This document shows, piece by piece, positions 7,927-53,640 of a stretch of 54,043 nt of DNA. Position 1 is the stretch's first letter, and each line of letters starts with the position of its first letter. The translations under genes and the position numbers were made by a program. The stretch comes from an uncultured virus (IMG/VR IMGVR_UViG_3300037312_001617) (lineage: Duplodnaviria; Heunggongvirae; Uroviricota; Caudoviricetes), in the IMG/VR virus record IMGVR_UViG_3300037312_001617, positions 62,001-116,043 of that record; one strand, 5' to 3'. The notes under the pieces are model-generated. The model made no database searches, had not been told where the DNA came from, and was given only the letters and a program-made list of their open reading frames with translations.

Positions 7927-8559
7927 TTATAACACCATTTTTGATGAAACAATCCGTTTAATTCGGTCAAATACTTCATCAATTGAACCGCTGGCATCCA
8001 CAATTTCAAAACGGTCTTTGAACTTTTTAGCGAGAAAATTATAAGCGTGACGAACTTTAATATGAAAATCCATTGGAGCTACATCAAATCGATTTTGCTC
8101 ACGTTGGTTTTGTTTAATTCTTTCTAGAGCAATGACAGGGCTTAAATCCAACAAAAGAGTAAGAATTGGTGTGGTGTTTTCGACCGCAGCCATGTTTATA
8201 TCATAAACGGTTTTCCATCCGACACCTTTTGCTACTCCTTGATACACAATAGAAGAATCAAAGAATCTATCGCAGATGACAACCTTTTTGGAATGGAGAG
8301 CTGGTTGAATCACATTAATAAAATGTTCCCGTCTTGCAGCACCATACAATAGAACTTCGGTCATCGCATCCATTTCCTTCACTTCTGGATTTAACAGTAA
8401 ATACCTTATCTTCTCGGCTAATTCAACTCCCCCTGGTTCCCTTGTTGTAACCACCTCGTATCCAAGAGACTCCAAATATTCTTTTAATCTTTTAATTTGA
8501 ACGCTTTTTCCAACTCCCTCTCCACCCTCGATAGTAAGAAAGTATCCATTTTGACTCAT
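7927..8559 (-). CDS. tmk: Thymidylate kinase
   Basis: IEGGEGVGKS P-loop, TTREPGG, VICDRFFDSSIVYQG; ATG 8559 follows RBS GGAGGG. Confidence 0.93.
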   Translation of the reverse strand: MSQNGYFLTIEGGEGVGKSVQIKRLKEYLESLGYEVVTTREPGGVELAEKIRYLLLNPEVKEMDAMTEVLLYGAARREHFINVIQPALHSKKVVICDRFFDSSIVYQGVAKGVGWKTVYDINMAAVENTTPILTLLLDLSPVIALERIKQNQREQNRFDVAPMDFHIKVRHAYNFLAKKFKDRFEIVDASGSIDEVFDRIKRIVSSKMVL

Positions 8560-20872: not shown

Positions 20873-23864
20873 GATGGAAATGAATGACCAAATATTGAAC
20901 CATATAATGAATGTTCAAACTCAATTGTTACAACAGATGATTAAAATGGAACAGGATCGGAATAGTACAATCTCCCAACCTGCCACCACAATCTCGCCAG
21001 ATACGGGTTCTTTCGGTACTCCATTGCCTAGTTCGATTGCCAGCCCAGTCACACCACCGCCTGTACAACATATGTCACAGCCCGGAACGCCTTTTATGTC
21101 AGTCAATGATCCAACTCGATATGGGACATACGCTGCGCCCAATCAGGGTTACTGGAGTCGTCAGAATCAAGCGGCACAATCAGGGTTTAGGAATTTTATC
21201 GGTGGAACGATTGATGAAATGAAAAATTTTGATCCCATGGGCCAATCCAGAGAAGCGACAGAACAATATTTTGCTCGACAATCAAGAGGGATGCAGGAAC
21301 AAACCGTCAATATACTCGGAGGAGCCATCCACGGAGCTGCCTCCGTAGGAAGTTTTTTCGTTCCAGGAGGATTGGCCGCTTCACTAGCTGTTGGTGGGGC
21401 TGTTGCTGGGGGAGTCGGTTTAGCGACGAATGCCATGGTGAACGGGGCAAAAACGTCACTTGATTATCAAGAACTCTTGCAGAACAACAGTTATAAATTT
21501 ATCAATGCGTTTGAGTCTACCTCCGATTTGGGCGGCACTGGGTTCGGCTTAAACGATAGACAAGAAATATCAGGGTTTTTGAGAGATTTATCAACGGATA
21601 AGTATCTTGATGACAATGAGATGATGAAAATCTTGGATGGGGCCGCAAGTAATAATTTGCTAAAGTCTGTCTCTGATGTAAAGAGTTTTAAAAAGAAGTT
21701 TACGGAAATCGTAGATACGGTCAAAGCGATTGCAGTTACCATGAACGAGAGCGTGGAGGAAGCCACGAAGTTTATGGGTGAGATGGAAAGGATGGGCATT
21801 TCCAACAAGGATATGAGTTATCTTGCCTCTCAATCCAAGGTTACAAGTTCCTTTATGGGAATCAGTTCTAATGAAGGGGCACAAATGATGCTTAATACCA
21901 CGAACCAAGTGGTACAGGGAACAGCGTTAAATTCAAAAAATATTGCAGAAAGTACAAATGAAACTGGTTTTATTATCAGCCGAATAGCGGAAGGTCCTTT
22001 ACGGCAATACATCAAAAATAATGGCGGGGAAGGCAATGTGACTTCTCAAGTCGAACAGCTCACGAGAAATTACGTGACACAGGGGGCAGGGCTAACATCT
22101 TTACTCGGATACTTCGGTTCTGGTTTTCAATACAACGAGAAAACCAGAGAATTCGAAGTCAATGAAAAAGAAATGAATCGTCTGTTGAACGGTAACATGT
22201 CAAGATCACAAATGCAACAAGCAAGCGATTCATATATGAATTCGTTATCGGATGACGAAAGGTACCGATTGCTCCAATCAGCTTCAACTGTGTTCAATAA
22301 TTATGCGGACACTGAAACGATGGCACGGTTTATGCAACGAAATGTACAGATGCTGCAACAAGAGACGCCGATGGATGAACAAACTGCTTTAACGAATCTA
22401 GGTATGGCACAAGATTTGGAACAAGCTAAATTGTTGGAAGAATATATCAACAATGCCACTGATCCAAACATATTGAAAGCCTATAAATCACAAGCATTGA
22501 AGAATGAGCAGGATTCCAAAGTGATTAGCGAAAGCCCGGGGTTCTCGAAGAGACTGAAATTTTGGTGGCAAAGGGTTTTTGAGAATCCATTAGGGGATAA
22601 AGGGCAGGCAGTTTCGGACTTCACTGGAGACTTGATGCAAGATTACCAAAAAATCCTGACAGGCATTGACGATACAAGTACGCTTGGCGGTGACGCTTCG
22701 CTAGAAAAGTTTGACCAAAAAGGATTAGAGAAAGTCCTTAAAAATAGCAAAGATTTAATGGATTACGGTATTACAAAACCGGGAGAGGCAGACTTGATTA
22801 ATCAGGATTTGGATGAATCTACATTTAGTTCTTTGATGAGCCAAGTTCAGAAAGGAAAGATAAGTGCCTCTGATTTAGACAAGGCTCTGAAGAACAATAA
22901 AGGCTGGATGTCTAAGTGGAGAGCAAGCATGCTGAAATCGGAAGCGAAGGGTACCTACGATGACATGGGGTTACTCGGGGATATCAGTTATGGCATACAA
23001 AGAGGTATTTTATGGGCGTCAGATAAAATAGTAGGCAATCAAGATGATTTTATGGAAGGTGTGGAGGATACAGCCAAAAGCACTTTCGACGATTTTAAAG
23101 ATCAGGAAAAAGGTTTGAATCAGCAGCTCAATAGGTTAGTCCTAGATGGAGGTTTGGACCCGGATAAAGTAGACCAAATCGAGAAAGCCATCAAAAAAGG
23201 GGACATGGATAAGGTTCGCTCCTATACGAATAATCGGGAAGCCATTAATTTGGCGGACAAGTTTAACTCGTTAGGAGAGAAAGAAAATCAATTCGAAAGA
23301 TTGACACGCTATACCACATCGATGACGCAAGCAGGGAGCCAGTTAGCCGGAGTCTTTCAGGCGAGTGGGGCGTTTGATGAAGAGGAAATCGATAGCATGT
23401 TTGGAAGTCTAAGGAGACGTTCCAAAAAAATAAGAGATAAAATCAAAGAAGGCGATATGTCTGCATCAGGCATGGCTCAATTTGACTCCGATACGATGGC
23501 TAAGTTTGACAAGATGTTTGATAACTTGCCTGATTCGGATTTAAGGAAATTAGCCCATTACCTGAATGAAAAATACGACGCTGGTTTAAATGAGAAAAAT
23601 GTAAATGCAGATAAACTGCAAGAATTCCTCTTAAATACCGTTGTCCGAGACCAACACATCACAGAACCTAACAAGGGTTCCGGTAAAGCGGAAAGTAAAA
23701 CAGATGAGGTCGCAAGCGCCGCCACCAAAGCGGCTGAAGAACATCAACAGGCGTTTTATTCGTTCTTAAATACTTATAAACAAGAAACTCAAATGATGAA
23801 GGATGCTGTTGAGGGAAGGCCAATTAGAAATACAAAAAGCTCAAGTCTAAGCTATACCGGTTAA
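20865..23864 (+). CDS. Tape measure protein
   Basis: 999 aa, mostly helical, Gly/Ala-rich hydrophobic stretch (GGLAASLAVGGAVAGGVGLA), canonical position. Confidence 0.75.
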   Translation: MTEMEMNDQILNHIMNVQTQLLQQMIKMEQDRNSTISQPATTISPDTGSFGTPLPSSIASPVTPPPVQHMSQPGTPFMSVNDPTRYGTYAAPNQGYWSRQNQAAQSGFRNFIGGTIDEMKNFDPMGQSREATEQYFARQSRGMQEQTVNILGGAIHGAASVGSFFVPGGLAASLAVGGAVAGGVGLATNAMVNGAKTSLDYQELLQNNSYKFINAFESTSDLGGTGFGLNDRQEISGFLRDLSTDKYLDDNEMMKILDGAASNNLLKSVSDVKSFKKKFTEIVDTVKAIAVTMNESVEEATKFMGEMERMGISNKDMSYLASQSKVTSSFMGISSNEGAQMMLNTTNQVVQGTALNSKNIAESTNETGFIISRIAEGPLRQYIKNNGGEGNVTSQVEQLTRNYVTQGAGLTSLLGYFGSGFQYNEKTREFEVNEKEMNRLLNGNMSRSQMQQASDSYMNSLSDDERYRLLQSASTVFNNYADTETMARFMQRNVQMLQQETPMDEQTALTNLGMAQDLEQAKLLEEYINNATDPNILKAYKSQALKNEQDSKVISESPGFSKRLKFWWQRVFENPLGDKGQAVSDFTGDLMQDYQKILTGIDDTSTLGGDASLEKFDQKGLEKVLKNSKDLMDYGITKPGEADLINQDLDESTFSSLMSQVQKGKISASDLDKALKNNKGWMSKWRASMLKSEAKGTYDDMGLLGDISYGIQRGILWASDKIVGNQDDFMEGVEDTAKSTFDDFKDQEKGLNQQLNRLVLDGGLDPDKVDQIEKAIKKGDMDKVRSYTNNREAINLADKFNSLGEKENQFERLTRYTTSMTQAGSQLAGVFQASGAFDEEEIDSMFGSLRRRSKKIRDKIKEGDMSASGMAQFDSDTMAKFDKMFDNLPDSDLRKLAHYLNEKYDAGLNEKNVNADKLQEFLLNTVVRDQHITEPNKGSGKAESKTDEVASAATKAAEEHQQAFYSFLNTYKQETQMMKDAVEGRPIRNTKSSSLSYTG

Positions 23865-39771: not shown

Positions 39772-40494
39772 ATGTTTAAGATTTCATTGAGCGCAGGCCA
39801 CGGTTTAGGTACGCCCGGAAAACGCTCACCTGATGGTATGCATGAGTGGGAATTTAATGGTGCCGTTGTTACGAAAATGGTTCAATTGTTTTCCCAATAC
39901 AAGGATGTAGCTGTGAAACGATTGGACAATCCAACTGGTGCGACAGACATTCCATTGAAGGATCGTGCTGCCGCCTCTGATGCCTTCGGAGCAAACTTCC
40001 ATCTGGATGTTCACGCCAATGCCTCCGGTTCCACCTGGAACGATGCAAATGGCATTGAAACCTTCTGTTATAAAATGCAGGGTGTAGGCTATGAAGTGGC
40101 TAAGAAACTTCAAAAAGCTTTAATCGACGCGACAGGACTTAAGGATCGTGGCGTGAAAGATGGAGAAGATCTATACATGATCAATCATCCGAAAGCGCCA
40201 GCTGCCTTAGTGGAATGCGGATTCATGACCAATCAAAAGGAAGCGGCCCTTTTAAAATCAGACGATTATCGTACGAAAGTAGCAAACGCATTGGTAAGTG
40301 CATTTGCCTCTCACTTTGGATTGGTGAAGGTACAGCCTGCTCCAACTCCTGTCACTCCAGCAAAACCGACTCCTTCTGTAACTGGAAAGTTGTACAAGGT
40401 GCAAGTTGGGGCATTTAGCAAGAAGGAAAATGCAGATGCCTTAATTAAAGACTTAGCTGTAAAAGGCTTTAAGGGTGCAGTCATTTATGAATAA
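39772..40494 (+). CDS. Endolysin: N-acetylmuramoyl-L-alanine amidase (Amidase_3) plus SPOR domain, CwlC-like
   Basis: SAGHG, HEWEFN, DVHANA, LVECGFMTN; C-terminal LYKVQVGAFSKKENA. Confidence 0.93.
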   Translation: MFKISLSAGHGLGTPGKRSPDGMHEWEFNGAVVTKMVQLFSQYKDVAVKRLDNPTGATDIPLKDRAAASDAFGANFHLDVHANASGSTWNDANGIETFCYKMQGVGYEVAKKLQKALIDATGLKDRGVKDGEDLYMINHPKAPAALVECGFMTNQKEAALLKSDDYRTKVANALVSAFASHFGLVKVQPAPTPVTPAKPTPSVTGKLYKVQVGAFSKKENADALIKDLAVKGFKGAVIYE

Positions 40495-40675
40495 TCAAAA
40501 CCGTTGGAAATCCTATATATTATGGGCTGCCGTTGCCGCGTTAGTTGGCGATGCTCTCATTGATTTGGGGTTATTAGGGGATTTAAATAAGTTTAATAGT
40601 TACGTAGATAAGGTGTTTTATATCTTGATGTTGTTAGGGATTGTCAATAACCCAACAAATAAAACAGGATTATGA
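40487..40675 (+). CDS. Holin
   Basis: 62 aa, two hydrophobic segments, QNRWKS.ILW...LGIVNNPT; overlaps the endolysin stop. Confidence 0.8.
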   Translation: MNNQNRWKSYILWAAVAALVGDALIDLGLLGDLNKFNSYVDKVFYILMLLGIVNNPTNKTGL

Positions 40676-40713: not shown

Positions 40714-40762
40714 GCTCACTAATTCTTAAAACAACCGTATAAAAAAAATGATAGAATACAAC

Positions 40763-40778
40763 TAGGATAATAGTCCTA
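40763..40778. promoter_or_regulatory. Operator-like site upstream of the appendage operon
   Basis: TAGGATAATAGTCCTA immediately before RBS AAAGGAGGG. Confidence 0.6.
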
Positions 40779-40797
40779 TATAAAGGAGGGAGACGTA

Positions 40798-41691
40798 ATG
40801 CCTCAAAAGATACAAGTAAAACGTGGAGCAAAGGCAAAACTGCAAAGTTATACATTGAGTGATGGAGAGCTTGGTTGGGCAACTGATACGAAAGAACTGT
40901 TTATCGGAACTGGCCTCACAAATATTCCAATCAATCCATTAGTTTACAATACTGAAGCTGAGGTGCAAAGCGCCTTTCCAAGTGGAACGGATATGCCAGT
41001 ATGGGTCAAATCAACAAAAAGATGGTATTTCTGGGATGACGGAACAACACCATCAGATATTACACCACCGACTGTTGTAGTTAACGTTCTGGGTGGAACG
41101 TATACATCAGTTCAGAATGTAAATCTAAGCACGGAGGCTGGGGCAATCATTTATTATACCTTAGATGGTTCGACACCGACCCAGACAAGTTCTGTTTATA
41201 CAGCTGCTTTAGTCATCAGTTCTTCTAAAGTATTAAAGTATTTCGCGAAGGACTCGGCTGGCAATGTTTCCGATGTTCAAACACAAACATATACCATCAA
41301 TATGGATACGACGGCTCCGACAGTTACTGTCTATCCAACGCCGGGCGCTTACACAAGCAGTCAAAGTGTAACATTTACTACTAACGAGACTGCGACCATC
41401 TATTACACCAAAGACGGTAGTACGCCAACAACAGGTAGTTCGGTATACACAAGCGCTATCGTTCTTAATGCGACGGGTACGATCAAATATTTTGCAAAAG
41501 ACGTGGCAGGCAATTCGAGTGGGATTCAAACAGCGACATATACCATTAACATTCCAGATGCTACTCCGCCTAGCTCAGTCCAAGGATTAAAAGTGGCAGC
41601 GGCTACCCAAAACAGCATCACTGTAAGCTGGAACGCTAATACAGAACCGGACCTTGCTGGGTACGAAGTCTCTATATCCGAGGTCGTTTAA
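40798..41691 (+). CDS. Appendage anchor: Mtd/hyaluronidase-type N-terminus, two CHB_HEX_C (Fn3-associated) repeats, ends in the N-half of an FN3 domain
   Basis: KIQVKRG...LSDGELGWATDTKELFIG; IYYTLDGSTPT and IYYTKDGSTPT; C-terminus PPSSVQGL...ITVSWNA...LAGYEVSISEVV. Confidence 0.75.
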   Translation: MPQKIQVKRGAKAKLQSYTLSDGELGWATDTKELFIGTGLTNIPINPLVYNTEAEVQSAFPSGTDMPVWVKSTKRWYFWDDGTTPSDITPPTVVVNVLGGTYTSVQNVNLSTEAGAIIYYTLDGSTPTQTSSVYTAALVISSSKVLKYFAKDSAGNVSDVQTQTYTINMDTTAPTVTVYPTPGAYTSSQSVTFTTNETATIYYTKDGSTPTTGSSVYTSAIVLNATGTIKYFAKDVAGNSSGIQTATYTINIPDATPPSSVQGLKVAAATQNSITVSWNANTEPDLAGYEVSISEVV

Positions 41692-41721
41692 TATCCTGAA
41701 AAGGAAAATGGAGGGACTATA

Positions 41722-43596
41722 ATGGCAACAACCACTAATACGAGTTATACCTTTACCGGGCTATCGCCAGGAAAGTCTTATCAAATCACAGTTTCAGCAA
41801 AAGATAATGCTGGAAACTCATCCACTCCCGTTTCCATTATTGGAAATACGAGTGCGGAAACTCCACTAGATACGACTGCGCCAACTGTTGATATTTCTCC
41901 AGCTGCGGGAACTTATACATCTACGCAGAATGTCACCTTGACGGCGAACGAGCCAGCAACCATTTTTTACACACTGGATGGTACTACTCCAACAGCAAGC
42001 AGTCCTGTATACAATTCGCCTATCAGCATTTCTGGATCCGCAACCCTTAAATATTTTGCAAAGGATACTTCTGGGAATTCAAGTTTGGTGCAAACGGCTG
42101 TATATACAATCAATATTCCTGATACTACTCCGCCATTGAATGTAGCAACAATTACTCCGACCACGGTTACAGATACTAGCGTCACCTTGACTTGGACTGC
42201 GAGTGAATCAAATGACGTGGCGTCCTATGATGTATTCAATGGTGCTGCGAAACTAGGAAACACTACATCACTCACTTATACTATAAACTCTTTGACAGCG
42301 GGAACGGACTATACCTTCTGGGTAAAGGCAGTAGATGGGGCCGGAAACAGTTCGAGTGGGACAAGCGTAAGTGTAAGAACTTCGGTACCGTTGGATACTA
42401 CTCCGCCAGTACTTACGATTACACAGGGAGGAAATTTCTATAATACTAAGACCATTACAATGAGCGCGAACGAAGCAGCGACCATTTACTATACAACGGA
42501 TAATAGTGATCCTGTAACATCAGGTACAAGAATGATCTATACGTCTGCTCTCACTCTTTCCAGTACAACGACCATCAAAGCATATGCGGTGGACGGAAGC
42601 AACAATGCTAGTGGGGTTCAGACTGTGACGTACACACAAGTAGCATATGTAACGAATGGACTTCAGGTTTACTATGACTTTGCCAGCCTCAACTCGACAC
42701 CTACTACAGTGACGGATTCGAGTGGTAATGGGAATACGGGAACATTAAAAAATTACTCTGGTTCATATGGAAGCGGCGTGATAAACGGAGAATTAGTCGG
42801 GGATGGTACAGGTGATTACATTACAATTCCTTCGAAGTCAACATTGAAAACTTATCCGTTTACAGTCGAATTCTATGCCAGTTTTAGACGAGATCAAGCG
42901 GATGCGGCTGGGTCATTCAAATTATTCTCCGATGCATCTGGCACAGGAACAGGTAATGGTGTATCAGTGAATCTTAATACGATAAAACATGCAACAACAC
43001 CTAATACAATCTATCTTAGCGGTCCTGTTTCACAGCCTAACTACGGTGTTTCTTTTAATGCATTTGATAACGTGTATCATCATATCGTTGCGGTATTTGG
43101 TTCAAATTACCAAAAAATATATGTGGACAACGTTTTGTTAGGTACAGGTAACCAAACTTCTACTGCTACTTTAGGTGACAGGGTACTCGCTTTATTCGCA
43201 GATAATGACACCGTTTCTGCCTCTGCTACAACATTACAGCACTCCGCTCGATTATTCCGATTCTATAATCGTGAACTAACACAAGCGGAAGTAACACAGA
43301 ACTATAATAATTTACCTTCAAGCTTTACACCAGGAGATTACAAAGCTCCAATCGCTACGTTCTCTCCAGCTCCTGGTACATATACAGGGGCACAGACCAT
43401 CACTATTACGTTAGATGATGCAGACGGAGCTGAGGTATATTACACCACAAACGGAACGATTCCGAATATAACAAATGCTTCACAAAAATACACGGCTCCA
43501 TTTACTATTTCAGCAACTTGTCGTATCAGCTATATTCCGAAAGACGCAGCGGGTAACAAAACTGCGATGAAGTATGTTGATTACACAATTAATTAA
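41722..43596 (+). CDS. Adhesin-like appendage protein: C-half FN3, CHB_HEX_C repeats, FN3, LamG-like lectin domain
   Basis: Starts MATTTNTSYTFTGLSPGKSYQITVSAKDNAGN; DSSGNGNTG...YHHIVAVF...RFYNRELTQAEVTQNY LamG; RBS GGAGGG. Confidence 0.8.
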   Translation: MATTTNTSYTFTGLSPGKSYQITVSAKDNAGNSSTPVSIIGNTSAETPLDTTAPTVDISPAAGTYTSTQNVTLTANEPATIFYTLDGTTPTASSPVYNSPISISGSATLKYFAKDTSGNSSLVQTAVYTINIPDTTPPLNVATITPTTVTDTSVTLTWTASESNDVASYDVFNGAAKLGNTTSLTYTINSLTAGTDYTFWVKAVDGAGNSSSGTSVSVRTSVPLDTTPPVLTITQGGNFYNTKTITMSANEAATIYYTTDNSDPVTSGTRMIYTSALTLSSTTTIKAYAVDGSNNASGVQTVTYTQVAYVTNGLQVYYDFASLNSTPTTVTDSSGNGNTGTLKNYSGSYGSGVINGELVGDGTGDYITIPSKSTLKTYPFTVEFYASFRRDQADAAGSFKLFSDASGTGTGNGVSVNLNTIKHATTPNTIYLSGPVSQPNYGVSFNAFDNVYHHIVAVFGSNYQKIYVDNVLLGTGNQTSTATLGDRVLALFADNDTVSASATTLQHSARLFRFYNRELTQAEVTQNYNNLPSSFTPGDYKAPIATFSPAPGTYTGAQTITITLDDADGAEVYYTTNGTIPNITNASQKYTAPFTISATCRISYIPKDAAGNKTAMKYVDYTIN

Positions 43597-43644
43597 AAGT
43601 GGGGGGGATTTGCCCCCCTCTGTTAAAAAAGGAGGTAGGATTCA

Positions 43645-46600
43645 TTGGCCACAACAAGTAGTACGAACTATACCTTTACAGATCTGACGCCTTTGACCGA
43701 TTACGAAATTGATGTAAAAGCAAAAGATACATCGGGAAACTTATCGTCTATTGCTTCGATAACGTACAAGACCCCTGACGTAGATAGTACGCCCCCTGAA
43801 TTGACCGTCCCAGATAGTGGGACCTTCAACGGAACAAAAACGATAGCTTTTACCACAAACGAGCCATCGACGATTTATTACACACAAGATGGTTCCATAC
43901 CAACTCGTGCTAGTTCGGTTTATACTGACCCGATTGTTTTAACAGATTCAAAAGCTGTTAAAGCCTTTGCAGTGGACTGGCAAGGAAATGAGAGTGATGT
44001 AAAGGTTGGAACCTATACGAGGAACTTTGAACCGGATGAAAAGTATTTAGATCTCGATGGAGTGACTAGTGGCATTGTGACAGCTAGTTCTATTACTACT
44101 ACGGCAATAGAAATGGATGTAATGTTTTATGATCGCGCTCCGACTGATAGCGGGACGATTGTAGAGCAAAACTATCAATGGGTTAGACGGCAATCCCCAA
44201 ATGATAATATCTCAAACGGGTATTATTCAGTATTCGTAGACGGAAACCCTACTACAAACGCAACACCCTTTCTGCCCGCTAATAAGAAGGTAACAGTCCG
44301 TTTGGTTAATACCAATCCAATGACCGCCAAGGTATACATTGGGGTATCATGGAACAACGGTTCCCGATTAAAAGCAAGGCTATATGGGCTTCGTTTTTTT
44401 AATGGCGGCGCATTGATTGGAAAATACGATTTTACTAAAGGGAATGCCAATGACTTATCAGGAAGCAATACCGTATTAAGCCTATATGGTACACCTACTT
44501 ATAGATTCCCTGATTCACCAAAATTGACTGCTCCAACAGAGGTACAGGATATTCATGTATCAAGTACGATGACCTCCAATACCATTGCCTGGTCCGAGCC
44601 AGTCGATGCTGATTACAGTCATGTGAGATTGCTGCGTAATGGCGTGGAGCTGTTCGATGATTTGACAGGAAATCTATTCGTGGATAAAGGGCTAAAGCCG
44701 AATACTTCTTATACTTACCGGCTTATTTCAACGGACAATTACGGAAATGAAAGTTTGGGAACAAAGCTGGTATTATCGACGTTACCAGACACTTCGATCG
44801 TTCCAGAAGTATCGAGTGTTGCCCAAACCCATACCCATGATTCGGTGAAGCTGACATGGACAAATCCTTTTGACCCATATACTTCCGTGAAAATTTATCG
44901 AAATGGTACTGCTATTGCAAGTGATTTAATGGGAACGGAATATACGGATAACGGATTGAGTTTAGGAACGACTTATAACTATAAGATCGTTGTTGTTGGA
45001 GTGACCGGAAAAGAAAGTGCAGGAACATCGATTAGTGCGACTACCGACGCTACACCAACTGTAATGGCATTATATATGTACGGTAACAGTTATCGGAACT
45101 GGATTGAGACTCCTTCTGTTACGTATAACCGACTCGTCTTGGATTTTAAACTTCCTGACCAAACAATTATTCCGCCAAATGGTACGTTTATTCTTTTAAA
45201 TACGGGTCAAGAAACATTTGGAAATAAAGTGTTCTATTCACCTACGGGAACAGAAACGGTCAATCACACTGTAGCTCCCGGAGGATTAATTGTTAATGGA
45301 GTGCCCGCATCGACGGGAACCAACTTTATTACTCCGAATACACGGACTGTTTTCGATATGACATTAGGCTCAACGGTTACCGAAGTTATTCGTGTGTTTG
45401 GTACACATAGTGCTTCACCATCCCCAGAAGGATACGTGTATAGTCTAAAAGCGTATAACGGAGATAATTTAATTCTTCATTACGACATGGGAAAAGGTAC
45501 TCTGAATGACCAGTCCGGCAATAACAAAAACGGTAAAATTGTAGGTGTCGGGGGTAAATGGTTAAAATCAAGCGACCCATATGTAGATACCACTCCACCA
45601 CCAGACGTGGCGAATTTAGAAGCAGCAAGTGTTACAGGAACAGGTTGCGTTCTTAAATGGACTGAGATATTCAAGGCGACTGATTTTGCTCGTTACGATA
45701 TCTATAAAAATGATGTACTACTTGGGAACGTAACAGGCCTTTCATACACTGTATCGGGATTGACTGCTGATAATTTGTATAAATTTACAGTTAAAGCGGT
45801 GGATACAAAAGGAAACTTCAGTGTCGGGGAATCTGTACAGGTTCTTACATCAACAGCGATGTCTACGGTCATTCCGCCTGTAGCAGATTCCATCTTGTTC
45901 GATTTGAATTTAATCAAGAACAAAGGCTCGTGGAATCGTACAGTATATGATCGGGTGAGCAACGTAAAAGTAGACCTGCCTAATGCTTTTGGTACAGACA
46001 AATTTAATAACATAGACTTTGGTTTCATTAATGATAAAGGTTACACCATTTATGAACAAGGTAGGGCAACCATCAACACTGGCGGGACGGCACTTGCATC
46101 AGGAATCAATATGTCGAGTGGCATCACACTTGAGTTCTTAATGGCGGCTCAACCTGTAAGAGCGATGCTAATTACTAGTACCCAGTTTGAATTAAAGAGT
46201 GATCCGAACGGTTTTACCCTAAAGTATACGTATTTAGATTTTTCAGGAGTGCAAAAGACTTACAGTGCGGGTACTTCTAATACTGCTAAATTTACGAATC
46301 TGGATACTCTAGGCACACCAACCAACCCGTATACAGATACGTTAAGGCCAAAAGGAGAGCTAAACTTAGTCACTGTCCGACTTAATACAAATGGTACGGT
46401 AGACGTAATTGGAAACACGTACAAATATCGTGTAGCCGCTCCAGCTGATTTCTCTTCGTATGTGAATTGTTTTAATCAAGCTTCAATGACATTTGGCGGT
46501 TTTGGGTTTATAGATAATACCCAAATTATGACTATGGGTAAAATCGTCATTCACAATCGGCTCTTGACCGACGGGGAAGTATTACAGAACTATGCCTTCT

Positions 46601-48498
46601 ACAATGAGTTGTATCCATTTGAGGACATTACGATTACCCCATCTTCGGTAAATTTGGATGTTGGGTCACAAAGACAACTCGTTGTTTATACTGTACCTTA
46701 CTATTATGACAACAAAGCTACAAAGACTTTTGATAGTGGTAATGCTGGATTTGTAACAGTTAGTAGCACAGGTCTTTTAGCCGGGGTACTTCCGGGAGAA
46801 ACCGACATAGGTGTCCATGTTGCCTATGGCGGGAAAGAAGTGGTTCGTAACGTTCCGGTAGAAATTGTGAGTCCTGTATCGGACCCGGACGCTATCGGTT
46901 CCACTTCACGTACAATCACAGGTATTTCCATCAACAAAAAGACAGACAGCATAGAAGTAGGAGAAGCTTATGTAGTCATGGCAACTACGCTTCCTTACGA
47001 CATTTTTTACGATAACGTGGTGATTTGGGAAAGTTCCAATCCAGACGTATGTGAAGTGCATTACGGGGTGCTAGAAGGAAAGTCGGTAGGGACAGCAACT
47101 ATTACAGCCTATGATAGTACCAAAACTTTTTCTGAGAGTTTTACAATTGAAGTAAAGCAACCAGTTCCACTGGTGATCACTGAAGCAGAGACTTATTATG
47201 TCAATGGGACTGATTATGGTCTCCAATTAAACAATACGGATTCCTTGAACACGACAAATGGTATCCAAGCAGCATGGGATTTTGCTCATGCAAATGGTTA
47301 CAAAAAAATTGTGTATCCGAACGGTACTTACTTAGTCAATCCAACTGTTAGGTCACTTGACCTCCCTTCGGATATGGTGATTGATTTTAGTGATTCTGTT
47401 ATGAATATCGAACCTAGTGCAAAAACGGCTACTGGTTATGTCATGATTAATATGAAGAACATCAAAAATACCATGGTAACCCGGTTGCATTTGTATGGGG
47501 AAGCAGATTCAACAACGCTAAAAGCGTCTTGGGAAGGCTGCTTGAATACCGAGATAAAAAACACTATAAATTGCGGCTATTACAAATGTACGATTAGTAA
47601 ATCTCCGGGATTCAATATAGCTTTTGGTAATAGTCCAGTTGAACCGGGAACAGAAACGGTAGTTTTAAGTAAAAATAATCTTTTTCCAGGCAATATAAAT
47701 AACCATGGACTAGAGGATGACAGTATCACTAGCTGGCATTTTAGGACTAAATTTTTCCTAGACATCTCGTCATTAGGTGCTTACTACATGTTAGGGTATA
47801 ACCAAGGATATTCAGGATATCCATTCTTGCGTTCTCGACTATACAGCATATACTTTTATGACGCAAATAAGCAATTTATGACCGCTCATCTATATAACTT
47901 ACAGTTCTACGAATACGTGAAACCAGTCGGTGCAAAGTACGCGAAGATTGTAATTTATCAAGAAGCAGCTCCTACTGGGGCAGACCCAGACTTCCAATCG
48001 GTAGCGTTACTCCGTACGATTGGTACAAATCGTAAATCCTATATTCGAGAGTGCCGCATTGAAAACAATTTTAGCACAGGTATTGCGGCATGTGGTGGAT
48101 ATGACAACCGGATTGAAGGAAACTTCTTCTCGGGAAACAATGGTCGTATGCCAGGATGTGACATTGACTATGAGGATGGTTGGGAAAATGCTTGTGGAGA
48201 TATTGTCCGAAACAATACATTTGGTTCCAATTTAGGTATTACTACTGCTTCAAGTTCGAGTTTAGCGGTATTCGATAATCTATTTAACAACTCACGGATC
48301 ACGGTTTGGGATAGAACCTGTACTTGGCGAATATTCCGTAACACTTTCAATGGTAGAAGTAATATGCAACCATCGTTTGGCACTCAGGGAGATTCCTATC
48401 TTGCGGAGAACGTCTTTATTAACCAAGTGTTTAGTACTTCGAAAAACCATGCCACTGCAAATTATAGTGTCCATGTAATTAATAACACAGTAATGTAA
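43645..48498 (+). CDS. Large tailspike-like protein: C-half FN3, CHB_HEX_C, FN3 and LamG-like repeats, Ig-like (Big_2) domains, C-terminal right-handed beta-helix
   Basis: TTG start after AAAGGAGGT; several FN3 units, VIWESSNPDVCEV Big_2, GIQAAWDFA...IVYPNGTY and NN..GNNGRMPGCDIDYEDG beta-helix. Confidence 0.8.
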   Translation: MATTSSTNYTFTDLTPLTDYEIDVKAKDTSGNLSSIASITYKTPDVDSTPPELTVPDSGTFNGTKTIAFTTNEPSTIYYTQDGSIPTRASSVYTDPIVLTDSKAVKAFAVDWQGNESDVKVGTYTRNFEPDEKYLDLDGVTSGIVTASSITTTAIEMDVMFYDRAPTDSGTIVEQNYQWVRRQSPNDNISNGYYSVFVDGNPTTNATPFLPANKKVTVRLVNTNPMTAKVYIGVSWNNGSRLKARLYGLRFFNGGALIGKYDFTKGNANDLSGSNTVLSLYGTPTYRFPDSPKLTAPTEVQDIHVSSTMTSNTIAWSEPVDADYSHVRLLRNGVELFDDLTGNLFVDKGLKPNTSYTYRLISTDNYGNESLGTKLVLSTLPDTSIVPEVSSVAQTHTHDSVKLTWTNPFDPYTSVKIYRNGTAIASDLMGTEYTDNGLSLGTTYNYKIVVVGVTGKESAGTSISATTDATPTVMALYMYGNSYRNWIETPSVTYNRLVLDFKLPDQTIIPPNGTFILLNTGQETFGNKVFYSPTGTETVNHTVAPGGLIVNGVPASTGTNFITPNTRTVFDMTLGSTVTEVIRVFGTHSASPSPEGYVYSLKAYNGDNLILHYDMGKGTLNDQSGNNKNGKIVGVGGKWLKSSDPYVDTTPPPDVANLEAASVTGTGCVLKWTEIFKATDFARYDIYKNDVLLGNVTGLSYTVSGLTADNLYKFTVKAVDTKGNFSVGESVQVLTSTAMSTVIPPVADSILFDLNLIKNKGSWNRTVYDRVSNVKVDLPNAFGTDKFNNIDFGFINDKGYTIYEQGRATINTGGTALASGINMSSGITLEFLMAAQPVRAMLITSTQFELKSDPNGFTLKYTYLDFSGVQKTYSAGTSNTAKFTNLDTLGTPTNPYTDTLRPKGELNLVTVRLNTNGTVDVIGNTYKYRVAAPADFSSYVNCFNQASMTFGGFGFIDNTQIMTMGKIVIHNRLLTDGEVLQNYAFYNELYPFEDITITPSSVNLDVGSQRQLVVYTVPYYYDNKATKTFDSGNAGFVTVSSTGLLAGVLPGETDIGVHVAYGGKEVVRNVPVEIVSPVSDPDAIGSTSRTITGISINKKTDSIEVGEAYVVMATTLPYDIFYDNVVIWESSNPDVCEVHYGVLEGKSVGTATITAYDSTKTFSESFTIEVKQPVPLVITEAETYYVNGTDYGLQLNNTDSLNTTNGIQAAWDFAHANGYKKIVYPNGTYLVNPTVRSLDLPSDMVIDFSDSVMNIEPSAKTATGYVMINMKNIKNTMVTRLHLYGEADSTTLKASWEGCLNTEIKNTINCGYYKCTISKSPGFNIAFGNSPVEPGTETVVLSKNNLFPGNINNHGLEDDSITSWHFRTKFFLDISSLGAYYMLGYNQGYSGYPFLRSRLYSIYFYDANKQFMTAHLYNLQFYEYVKPVGAKYAKIVIYQEAAPTGADPDFQSVALLRTIGTNRKSYIRECRIENNFSTGIAACGGYDNRIEGNFFSGNNGRMPGCDIDYEDGWENACGDIVRNNTFGSNLGITTASSSSLAVFDNLFNNSRITVWDRTCTWRIFRNTFNGRSNMQPSFGTQGDSYLAENVFINQVFSTSKNHATANYSVHVINNTVM

Positions 48499-48552
48499 TC
48501 ATCTACGAGGGCACTCTTGGGTGTCCTCTAAATTAGAAAGGGAGTGTCATAT

Positions 48553-51177
48553 ATGGGAACATGGAGAGAATTACCTGGTGGTTCTTATAGCAATGGAGTA
48601 ACAGCTTTAGCGGGATTATCAGATGTTGATGTCAGCACCCAAGTACCAACCGAAGGAGATCTGTTAAAGTACATTAATGGTAAGTGGAAACCGGGCGCAG
48701 CTGCTGCCAGTGGTAGCGGAGGAACGATTATATCTTCTTCAGGTTCAACATATATTGTCGAGTTATCAAAATGGGGAATTGTAGCGGGAATCCCTTCTAA
48801 GCCTTATAACAATGCAGCTTATACACAAGCCAACAACAACGTAGTAGGATTCAACAACGCGATTCAATACGCGGTAAATAATGGCTATACGGATATTGTT
48901 CTCCCAAGAGGTCAATATGCCATTTGTTATCCGTCCGTGATTAGCATGGCGAGTTACCTGACGTTCGATTTCAACGGTTCTACGTTGAAAGTAATCTACG
49001 ATTCCGATAACCGTTCTCCTTATGATACAGCAGGAGCATCGGCTGGTCTATCTCCATGGAAATTCTATGGAACCAGTATTGCCATGGATAACCTTGTTCA
49101 TGCACATATTAAAAACCTTACACTCATTGGCTGCCGAGCAGACAGAAGTTTCGCTGACAAGGGAACAGATGGGATTTCCGGTGAACTGTCAATGGAACAA
49201 ACTTATGGTATCTCATTCGGGAATGGTACACGTCACTGTTCGGTAAAACATTGTGATATCAGTTATTACATGGGTGATAATATCACATTTAGTTCCTTGC
49301 CAAACGGAACTCGTTGGGCTGAATTTAGCATGGGACTTACTGTAAATGACATCGATTTTACTACCGGTCAGCTTATTGCTGCTACTGACAAACTGACCAC
49401 TATGTTATTCACCCTTCCAGCTGGAACGAAAACATGGGCCATACAAGGGGCGGGATATTCACGGGCAACAAGTGCATATAACAGACACGAGTTTGATGTG
49501 TTTTACTACGATGCAAGTGGAAACTATTTAGGAGTTCTTCCTAAAAGACATTTCTATTCTCCTATCGACGTTCCATACAATGCGGCCAAATTTAGAGTTG
49601 TGTTCTTTAATGAAACCAACACGACTAAAAATATGGGTATGATCTTCGTATTTGGGGATTTCAACTACAACAACCTTGTTGAATACAACGTTTTGCATGA
49701 TTCCCATCGTGGCGGTTTAACGCTTGGCGGAAACCACAATATTGTTCAACGAAATGTCATTAAAAACAATGGTAAGTATATTGGTAGAATGTTAGACGGA
49801 AAACCAGCGTTCAATGATCCTACTCGATATGGTATCAACCAAGAGGATAGTTATGGTGAAGGTTCGATTATTAGGGAGAATGTCATCTACGGAAGTTTCC
49901 ATGGTGTCTTGATGGGTGCTTATTCCTCAATCATTGAAAATAACCATATTTATGACTGTGACTACTTAGCTATCAATGTTTATACCTTGGATTATCTGCT
50001 TATCCGTGGCAACAAGATTCAAAACTGCTTATATAATCTAGGAATTGGCGGGAATGGATTTTCTGATGGATTTGTGGAAGTTGTTCAAAATAGCTTTTAT
50101 GGGGGGATGCTTGATATCGGTTGGACAAGTAGCCCAGTTCACTACTTCCATTTTGAGTCCAATAATTTTTACAATCCACATGGCTTACAGGATGTTGGCT
50201 CTAATGCCACCTTTAAAGATAATCGTATCCGTTTGTACCTAGATGCACCGGGCCAACATGTCCCGTCTACTGCGGAATACTACGACTACTCCACTTATGA
50301 GCCAGTAGTATTTAAGATTCCGAAGATGGATAATTGCGTCATCGAAGGACGGGTAAACAGCGTATTTACAGCTAAATCGGATGCGACATTCATTACTGAC
50401 AGGTTCCTTAACTGTAAGTTATCGAACTTGAACGCAACTTTCACGACCCTTACAGACACAATAAAGGATAGTGAAGTAGCTTTTCAAGATTGCGAGTTTA
50501 ACAGTGTTTTCTTTATCAATCATGTAACAAGCAAATCAAGACATGCCAAAGCAACTCGATCTACTTTCAATGACACGATAATCAAAATATCTAATGCCGG
50601 AGTATCAACGTCTGTAGTAAAGGTAAGTATGGATAAGTGTAAAGTGAATTCCACGCTTTTAGACTCTTTCTTCTTAACGAGCTTAGACCAGACAACAGGA
50701 GCAATAGATGTAACAGATACAGAATTCACTTACTCCAATGGTGGTATGTTGAATATCGTGAGAAACTTACAGACGGCAACGAACACTCAGAATACAGCAT
50801 CGTTTAAGAATTCTACGTTCACTTATACTGGGGCTATTCCAATCGCATTGGGCTATTACAATGACAAAAACCCAATGAAGTCGTTTGTTTCTCATAACAA
50901 CAAATTCGTAAACGTCACTCTTCCGACCCAAGATGCGGGTATCTATATTGGTTATGACCCAAGTAAACAATATAAGAAGACGGTCACTCTTGCTCAAAAT
51001 GGTTCGGTGTATGAAGCGACCATCACGCACAATCTGAATACCACTGAACCATATGTATTTTGTGCGATTTCCAATCAGATTATTTATCCGACTGTAACGG
51101 TGATTGATGCTAATAACATTAAGGTGAGCCATACCGCTAGTGGTACCGCGAGTATAGCGGTTTCTAAGTTTCTATAA
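48553..51177 (+). CDS. Pectin-lyase-like right-handed beta-helix protein (putative depolymerase/tailspike)
   Basis: LAGLSDVDV...GDLLKYINGKWKP fibre motif; GFNNAIQYA...IVLPRGQY; Asn-ladder repeats; C-terminal ITHNLNT module. Confidence 0.8.
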   Translation: MGTWRELPGGSYSNGVTALAGLSDVDVSTQVPTEGDLLKYINGKWKPGAAAASGSGGTIISSSGSTYIVELSKWGIVAGIPSKPYNNAAYTQANNNVVGFNNAIQYAVNNGYTDIVLPRGQYAICYPSVISMASYLTFDFNGSTLKVIYDSDNRSPYDTAGASAGLSPWKFYGTSIAMDNLVHAHIKNLTLIGCRADRSFADKGTDGISGELSMEQTYGISFGNGTRHCSVKHCDISYYMGDNITFSSLPNGTRWAEFSMGLTVNDIDFTTGQLIAATDKLTTMLFTLPAGTKTWAIQGAGYSRATSAYNRHEFDVFYYDASGNYLGVLPKRHFYSPIDVPYNAAKFRVVFFNETNTTKNMGMIFVFGDFNYNNLVEYNVLHDSHRGGLTLGGNHNIVQRNVIKNNGKYIGRMLDGKPAFNDPTRYGINQEDSYGEGSIIRENVIYGSFHGVLMGAYSSIIENNHIYDCDYLAINVYTLDYLLIRGNKIQNCLYNLGIGGNGFSDGFVEVVQNSFYGGMLDIGWTSSPVHYFHFESNNFYNPHGLQDVGSNATFKDNRIRLYLDAPGQHVPSTAEYYDYSTYEPVVFKIPKMDNCVIEGRVNSVFTAKSDATFITDRFLNCKLSNLNATFTTLTDTIKDSEVAFQDCEFNSVFFINHVTSKSRHAKATRSTFNDTIIKISNAGVSTSVVKVSMDKCKVNSTLLDSFFLTSLDQTTGAIDVTDTEFTYSNGGMLNIVRNLQTATNTQNTASFKNSTFTYTGAIPIALGYYNDKNPMKSFVSHNNKFVNVTLPTQDAGIYIGYDPSKQYKKTVTLAQNGSVYEATITHNLNTTEPYVFCAISNQIIYPTVTVIDANNIKVSHTASGTASIAVSKFL

Positions 51178-52989: not shown

Positions 52990-53532
52990 TTATAAATAAA
53001 AATCGTATTGCGCCTGGTCGATCTGTTCCTGTGTGATCCCGATGTATCTTAGGGTGACGGAAGGGGAGCTGTGGTTAAAAATCTCCTGCAGCATCGCCAC
53101 ATCTTTGTTTCGTTTGTAAAAATGGTATCCATAGGTTTTGCGGCATGTGTGCGTCCCGATGTTATCGAGCCCCGCTTTCCTGGCTGCCTTATTTAATATT
53201 TTATAAGCCTGAACCCGCTGAATGGGTTTGTCGGTTAGGCGGGAAGGAAAGAGATAATCTTCTTCGCCCATATCAAAGGTATAGTCGTCGATGTCGACCC
53301 GCAGACTAGGACTAATGATGTGGGACTTCATCTTTTTTGTTTTCTGCTCGTTGATGTAGATGTGACTTTTGCCCCGTACGTGTTTGACTTTTAATTGGAG
53401 CAGGTCACTGATCCTGAGTCCGGTGTTTATTCCCATGACGAATAAAAACCAATTTCTGTAACTTTCTTTTTTTAGGATGCGTTTGACTTCTTCGATTTTT
53501 TCTGGGTCTCGGATTGGTTGAACGAACTTCAT
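52990..53532 (-). CDS. Tyrosine recombinase, catalytic-domain-only (~180 aa) Bacillus phage/plasmid type
   Basis: MKFVQPIRD start; NTGLRISD, EQKTKK, GTHTCRKT, FNHSS, TLRYIG give the R-K-H-R-H-Y set. Confidence 0.92.
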   Translation of the reverse strand: MKFVQPIRDPEKIEEVKRILKKESYRNWFLFVMGINTGLRISDLLQLKVKHVRGKSHIYINEQKTKKMKSHIISPSLRVDIDDYTFDMGEEDYLFPSRLTDKPIQRVQAYKILNKAARKAGLDNIGTHTCRKTYGYHFYKRNKDVAMLQEIFNHSSPSVTLRYIGITQEQIDQAQYDFYL

Positions 53533-53616
53533 TTTAGCGCTCCCTGTGTTTCCTTTTTGTATACAAGTATAACCGATATGTTTCCCTATTAAAAATGAAA
53601 AAAACGGGAGACTCCG

Positions 53617-53640
53617 AAAACGTTGATTTATCAACGTTTT
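53617..53640. repeat. Perfect palindrome upstream of the recombinase (candidate binding/resolution site)
   Basis: AAAACGTTGAT-tt-ATCAACGTTTT. Confidence 0.6.

Follow-up and report, generated by a model that had tools for sequence, protein, structure and literature searches.

Beta-sandwich domains shared between polypeptide chains are known, and the closest described counterpart of the case reported here is the baseplate tripod of the Lactococcus phage Tuc2009. There, a 25-residue hairpin of BppU completes the sheet of domain 2 of BppA, and the resulting composite is similar to an Ig domain of titin (PMC4742702); BppA is not essential, although it enhances binding (PMC9692632). The present analysis concerns a 54,043-nucleotide stretch from an uncultured Caudoviricetes virus, positions 62001–116043 of IMG/VR record IMGVR_UViG_3300037312_001617, which totals 116,043 bases. 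This stretch is called the window, and positions are those of the window unless the contig is named. Within it, a fibronectin type III (FN3) domain is split between gene 40798, which ends with strands A-B-C (the socket), and genes 41722 and 43645, each of which begins with strands C'-E-F-G (plug 1 and plug 2). The split is confirmed. That it serves as a socket-and-plug joint by FN3 domain complementation is considered probable, on the basis of sequence comparison and a structure model.

In the adhesion device of Tuc2009, the C-terminus of a scaffold protein completes the beta-sandwich of an accessory carbohydrate-binding protein, and the present proteins would resemble it in this. The remark in the initial annotation that such an arrangement is undescribed for phage appendages was therefore too strong, BppU completing the Ig-like domain of BppA (PMC4742702). 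In Tuc2009 a two-stranded hairpin completes the C-terminal domain of its partner, and one partner is described, whereas here three strands would meet four and the plug is N-terminal. In addition, there are two plug genes per socket gene here, and internal sockets in a relative. The context, judged from the genes, is a phage contig with Mtd_N and LamG domains and no secretion signal. By analogy, the joint would work like BppU/BppA complementation in a different geometry, and not like pilus-type donor-strand exchange.

Chaperone-usher and type V pili are built from secreted subunits, each with a donor and an acceptor, that polymerise; a single strand donated by another chain completes the Ig-like fold. 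Here, in contrast, each chain carries about half a domain, none of the proteins combines an orphan N-half with an orphan C-half, and there is no signal-like hydrophobic stretch. In the cohesin-dockerin system of cellulosomes a repeated docking module on a scaffold accepts different cargo; this is an analogy only, since two folded domains bind there, whereas a socket and a plug would together make up a single domain. The FnIII-2 insert of the insulin receptor sits in the C-C' loop. In the insulin receptor family the alpha/beta cleavage site lies within this insert and the domain is shared by two chains (PMC2577065); unlike the socket and plug genes, this is one gene whose product is cleaved after folding and disulfide-linked, with no alternative partner. 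Fragments of an engineered FN3 monobody that was divided at the CD loop, equivalent to the C-C' loop, refold when mixed 1:1, and a cut in this loop is reported to be the most efficient (PMC11666773, which cites Dutta et al. 2005). These engineered proteins have the same fold and loop but are man-made on a human FN3 scaffold, whereas the present split is natural, conserved and gene-encoded. A search of the literature, with most subscription papers outside its reach, turned up no phage in which an FN3 domain is naturally split mid-domain.

The split FN3 domain and its genes

Gene 40798 (40798–41691, on the plus strand, as are both plug genes) encodes 297 residues, comprising an Mtd_N domain at residues 5–40 (40810–40917; Pfam), two Ig-like CHB_HEX_C repeats and the socket at residues 253–297 (41554–41688), ending YEVSISEVV. 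Mtd_N domains occur as trimers at phage fibre tips. Gene 41722 (41722–43596; 624 residues) begins with plug 1 (residues 1–47, 41722–41862) and continues with CHB_HEX_C repeats, one intact FN3 domain that serves as an internal comparator (42118–42387), and a LamG domain (Laminin_G_3, 42802–43293; 46.1 bits against a cut-off of 27.6). Gene 43645 (43645–48498; 1617 residues) begins with plug 2 (43645–43785), followed by CHB_HEX_C, three intact FN3 domains, Big_2 and unassigned domains. The three reading frames, their half-FN3 termini and the LamG domain of gene 41722 are as the initial annotation had them.

For detection of incomplete domains, an FN3 profile made from 251 sequences was divided at the C-C' loop into N-half and C-half hidden Markov models (half-HMMs). 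The whole 116-kb contig contains one orphan N-half, in gene 40798 (57.6 bits, ending 6 residues short of the stop), and two orphan C-halves, starting at residue 1–3 of genes 41722 (50.8 bits) and 43645 (40.3 bits); its other four FN3 domains are paired in cis. The Pfam fn3 model matches gene 40798 at residues 259–295 over positions 1–38 of 84, under its curated cut-off. In a control set of 104 other loci, from which 6 records of the phage and of its near-identical copy were excluded, none of 382 N-half matches had a stop within 12 residues of its end. Of 345 C-half matches, a single one lay near an upstream stop, this one being a frameshift in locus L158. The split is therefore beyond chance.

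This DNA occurs in 11 sequencing runs, all of soil or rhizosphere metagenomes and none of them listed as RNA. Seven are flagged as possible sources, and the TAA stop of gene 40798 (41689–41691, followed by T) was checked in the other 4. Contigs of two of these runs, X9 (40721–42152) and X10 (41310–41767), bridge the stop unchanged, and therefore it is not a sequencing error; the junction ahead of gene 43645 is likewise bridged by an X9 contig (42630–44559). The runs carrying these contigs may belong to one sampling campaign, and stretches left uncovered in the 4 runs carry no weight. An IMG/VR copy (L001) has 1 difference in 20,891 bases and is not independent support. One contig joint, from 41402 to 42564 between repeats and with a 27-letter side, probably derives from another organism.

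Genes 40798 and 41722 share a frame and are 33 nucleotides apart including the TAA, the remaining 30 nucleotides forming an in-frame spacer (41692–41721). A frame shared by four genes here was considered as a sign of one ancestral reading frame and rejected, since the same holds for 14 of the 31 pairs of neighbouring genes in the block. The halves had been said to join at the C-C' loop with no residue lost or gained, and the residue count at the junction is indeed that of the intact domain. The argument from an exact join is weak, as the socket's last residues, ISEVV, score under all 161 intact loops of equal size on a generic loop profile; the socket was therefore not cut cleanly here, and its end is remodelled. 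NGGTI, read from the five codons that close the spacer, fits the loop better than ISEVV, with mixed controls: it is equalled by 9 of 114 gene starts on the generic profile, and ranks among the best 2 of the 114 on a family-specific profile that was chosen after the generic test. There is a weak hint here that NGGTI is a relic of the intact loop, within which the start of gene 41722 may have arisen.

When the frame is read through with X at the stop, the predicted fold has seven strands in the ABE and C'CFG sandwich with its core residues (predicted local distance difference test, pLDDT, 79.8), matches FN3 structures, and extends strand C through the last socket residues. What departs from an ordinary FN3 domain is the stop and new start within the C-C' loop, so that the domain is not one polypeptide. 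There are no cysteines in the socket or either plug that could lock the joint by disulfides, and no signal peptide or membrane segment in the three proteins.

Each plug gene has the strong ribosome-binding site attributed to it, GGAGG at 41710–41714, 7 bases 5' of the 41722 start, and at 43631–43635, 9 bases 5' of the TTG start of gene 43645. The duplex energies are −11.7 and −13.6 kcal/mol, against −13.1 kcal/mol for gene 40798, as computed with an anti-Shine-Dalgarno motif. The in-frame TAA at 43624 said to deprive gene 43645 of a partner in cis is present, but the nearest in-frame stop is a TAG at 43636, both lying in the plus-strand segment that precedes the start (43624–43644). Plug 2 is identical to plug 1 at 23 of 48 residues, with core positions retained and the same first residue. 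In bacterial FN3 domains of loci L118, L123, L124, L129, L139, L144, L166, L168 and L173, a long unrelated stretch follows the N-half at the C-C' loop; this is apparently an inserted domain, and the loop apparently tolerates interruption.

Conservation of the halves in relatives

The same split point is kept in related elements. In a comparison covering 120 of 474 homologues of gene 40798, its end point, nine residues from the tyrosine of strand C, recurs in P0002 (73 % identity) and P0006 (65 %); P0121, from the same cluster as P0006, also stops there. P0006 and P0121 come from two contigs of about 30 kb. The 41722 orthologue P0277 (441 of 626 residues identical, 70 %) starts MMATTTNTSYT and is alone among 32 matches in beginning with a C-half. 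The longest contigs of P0002 and P0277 are both 12,018 bases, and because of this their genes are presumed to be neighbours.

Decay of the halves in relatives was not seen. Plug 1 is better conserved between gene 41722 and P0277 (35/44 identical) than the intact FN3 domain of the same pair (57/90), and the socket is kept in P0002 (33/45) about as well as the adjacent repeat (60/83). Five sockets are identical to one another at 20–34 of 45 positions, and four sockets to three intact N-halves of the family at 12–19 of 45. The motif Y[DE]VxIx[EQ][VI] after a conserved aspartate is confined to socket proteins among 276 collected proteins.

A further relative, P0213 (578 residues), has two N-halves within its chain, scoring 39.8 and 51.7 bits, and the sequence after each is not FN3. 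The half-HMM finds no C-half above 3 bits in it, and completion of its halves in cis is therefore rejected; the full-length profile stretched the second match to position 85, with which the half model disagrees. A single-sequence fold of P0213 was unusable (pLDDT 36). The longest contig is 30,410 bases for both P0213 and P0121, so that the element would have three sockets.

Two unnamed domains recur in these proteins. A C-terminal domain of about 110 residues ending NPYYFR.xKY is shared by the fibre-like proteins P0213, L006:50-1117 and L006:1133-2719, and the C-terminus of P0213 gave no usable match in the structure atlas. In P0002 and P0121, the place that Mtd_N takes in gene 40798 is held by another N-terminal domain; this unnamed domain of about 100 residues also heads L006:1133-2719 and L006:2725-3699, and is a candidate for a second kind of anchor.

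Modelled complex of the socket with plug 1

Residues 168–297 of the 40798 product and 1–132 of the 41722 product, each chain with a decoy repeat, were modelled together. One FN3 domain was rebuilt, as had been expected of these two ends, with a score of 0.74, the best of three controls scoring 0.00; at the pass mark used, 51 of the 78 solved complexes pass, as do 2 of the 108 mismatched pairs. The model runs share at least 99 % of contacts, with partner pLDDT of at least 90, and contacts are confined to residues 253–296 and 1–47, the best-defined strand pairs being B-E and C-F. The pass may reflect likeness to solved FN3 structures, which tends to let the two parts of any split domain through, and the model therefore shows fit and not binding. 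Since the ends are conserved, plug 1 is better conserved than the intact FN3 domain and the complex model passes, complementation in trans of the 40798 half by the 41722 half is supported.

Alternative explanations

The best of the rival explanations, although unlikely, is simple fission, by which an FN3 gene broke in the loop and left genes 40798 and 41722 as a fixed pair whose halves re-associate with no exchange, plug 2 being a by-product of duplication of the 41722 start or the partner of an unseen second socket. Genes 40798 and 41722 do lie next to each other in one frame, insertions are frequent in the C-C' loop of other FN3 proteins, sequence is missing from the near-identical 121.7-kb record, and NGGTI ranks high on the family profile, subject to the late choice of that profile. 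However, plug 2 has kept its core positions and its starting point at 48 % identity to plug 1, sockets are duplicated in P0213 with no C-halves, and the NGGTI score is matched by other gene starts on the generic profile.

It is improbable that the A-B-C half self-associates as a dimer or trimer, with the C-halves doing likewise or binding something else, so that one FN3 domain is never rebuilt. The internal N-halves of P0213, for whose element no plug was found, and the remodelling of the socket end relative to intact loops would suit this explanation. Against this, two elements conserve socket and plug together, with strands that are exactly complementary, and the model, which was of the heteromer, pairs the halves canonically.

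Read-through of the stop, or ribosomal bypass, into one 931-residue protein with an intact FN3 domain and an 11-residue loop insertion is quite improbable. The same frame with a single TAA would allow it, and the joined frame scores 55.5 bits as fn3 and folds as described above. However, gene 41722 has a strong ribosome-binding site of its own, and same-frame neighbours are common here. TAA ends 23 of 33 genes checked, with TAA-T in four of the last six, and neither unusual RNA structure nor the features of leaky-stop or T4 gene 60-type sites are found. The spacer contains no GT dinucleotide, and hence no matching valine landing codon for bypass. Plug 2, with two stops and no upstream N-half, and the internal halves of P0213 would also be left unexplained.

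DNA recombination or RNA splicing that joins the socket to either plug, giving alternative single-chain fibres, is very improbable. All three genes share a frame and there is a tyrosine recombinase at 52990–53634, but the repeats listed (the 20 largest direct families and 20 inverted pairs) include none that links the socket end to the plug starts, and no contig joint spans either junction in the 4 runs, although contigs drop rare forms. The 30-nucleotide spacer folds no better than shuffled sequences, each plug has its own start signals, and plug 2 and P0213 again remain unexplained. Finally, a recent nonsense mutation, sequencing error or decaying remnants are largely refuted: although ends of metagenome proteins can be contig edges, and the seven other collected proteins that end and five that start within FN3 domains at scattered positions may be such, the stop is unchanged in two other runs, the ends of P0002, P0006 and P0121 and the start of P0277 coincide with those here, and conservation of the halves is close to that of the adjacent sequence or higher.

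The proposed joint and the points against it

The socket-and-plug joint would work as follows. The three genes, whose structure is observed, would yield three separate proteins, the C-terminal strands A-B-C of the anchor (the 40798 product) being the socket and the N-terminal strands C'-E-F-G of the larger proteins the plugs. In the infected cell, socket and plug would co-fold into one seven-stranded FN3 domain, with strands B-E and C-F pairing across chains and the chains joined non-covalently. The initial annotation had the socket folding in trans with either plug; the modelling supports this for gene 41722, and gene 43645 may join in the same way. The anchor is probably fixed on the virion through its N-terminal domain, and the protein that it displays, either the one with LamG or the large one with many domains, would serve as an appendage that binds sugars. 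As there are two plug genes to one socket gene, a mix of both kinds would be expected on the particles. A wider version, in which the A-B-C half is a free-standing, duplicable socket, terminal or internal, on several scaffolds of the phage family, any plug-headed protein can dock, virion decoration with receptor-binding proteins is combinatorial in the manner of a cellulosome, and new appendages arise by fusion of a 45-residue plug, is put forward tentatively.

A number of points weigh against the joint. The main gap is that no plug was found for the element of P0121 and P0213, the only C-half start among the 32 matches being that of P0277. P0002 and P0277 are known as proteins, and their pairing rests on equal longest contigs. 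The socket of P0121 (27/45 identical to that of gene 40798) is somewhat under the adjacent repeat (60/83). The near-identical 121.7-kb record has one socket, and a second may be unsequenced, as this record is estimated to be 80 % complete. In G002 (locus L006), with similar kinds of genes, there are 8 FN3 matches, none with a stop, and the split is therefore not family-wide. Searches with DNA patterns in three collections gave no case beyond the near-identical copy: the socket-plus-stop and plug patterns found this copy only among viral contigs, a relaxed socket pattern found 14 loci, of which 13 lack a stop at the position concerned, and the socket pattern had no matches in metagenome and genome contigs. 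Alignment scans yielded 80 and 75 loci, none with a clean split, no close relative was found among GenBank phages and plasmids, and the representative search, which covered 150 of 3645 matches, was dominated by multi-repeat proteins. In addition, the complex model covers the socket with plug 1 alone, and the gene 40798 cluster comes after the lysis cassette, its virion location being presumed. The split monobody melts at about 45 °C against 78 °C when intact (PMC11666773), which would be weak for a load-bearing joint.

Neighbouring genes and genomic context

Just 5' of the socket gene, at 39772–40675 on the plus strand, are an endolysin (Amidase_3, SPOR) and a holin-like gene. Head, tail, baseplate and lysis genes are all present in the window by Pfam and PHROG annotation, and gene content and 40 % G+C suggest a low-GC Gram-positive soil bacterium as host. 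A short motif at 40939–41043, before the first repeat of gene 40798, recurs in many of its homologues and has no Pfam match.

Downstream, gene 48544 (48544–51177, plus strand) encodes a beta-helix protein (NosD above cut-off; PHROG tail spike) in which the half-HMMs find no FN3 half. Description of the 43645 product as a beta-helix tailspike is weakly supported: its C-terminal region is weakly beta-helix-like, with 21 % identity (E 1e-5) to gene 48544 and no Pfam or PDB sequence match. The hairpin reported before gene 43645 is present (43602–43618, 6 bp of G-C), but its T-run lies on the minus strand and it is terminator-like on that strand only. A G-C-rich hairpin without a plus-strand T-run likewise precedes gene 48544 (about 48507–48528), and the two may tune expression ratios. 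Promoter-like and terminator-like sites occur at chance-level frequency. The listed GTG start of gene 48544 (48544–48555) has a weak ribosome-binding site (−4.3 kcal/mol), and therefore the ATG three codons downstream is the likelier start.

Elsewhere, the window encodes a DndB-like (DNA sulfur modification-associated) protein at 1804–2982. Outside it, at contig positions 7997–20515 (L189, L190), is a Tcp-like conjugation set of NlpC/P60 hydrolase, AAA_10 ATPase, TcpE, TcpC, Replic_Relax and a 968-residue ATPase. There is an Alp7A-type actin at contig position 21174, and the same contig has a full virion module and an integrase. From these genes, a conjugative phage-plasmid is possible; nothing specific on one of this sort was found in the literature. 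A second appendage-like cluster lies at contig positions 22396–47574 (L190, L191), with 4 Mtd_N proteins, one having an internal Mtd_N and a metallophosphoesterase, together with beta-helix proteins, a BNR-repeat protein, a Gp80 fibre protein and a 2057-residue protein with CotH, LRR and DUF285; the half-HMMs find no FN3 halves in it.

Implications

For annotation, the case is a caution that a phage FN3 domain interrupted by a stop is not necessarily a pseudogene or an error. The socket and plug would be a natural, evolved split-FN3 pair, comparable with the engineered ones, which lose stability. If the joint is as proposed, it would give a phage a simple gene-encoded route by which several large binding proteins are hung on one anchor, and new binding proteins could be gained through a 45-residue tag.

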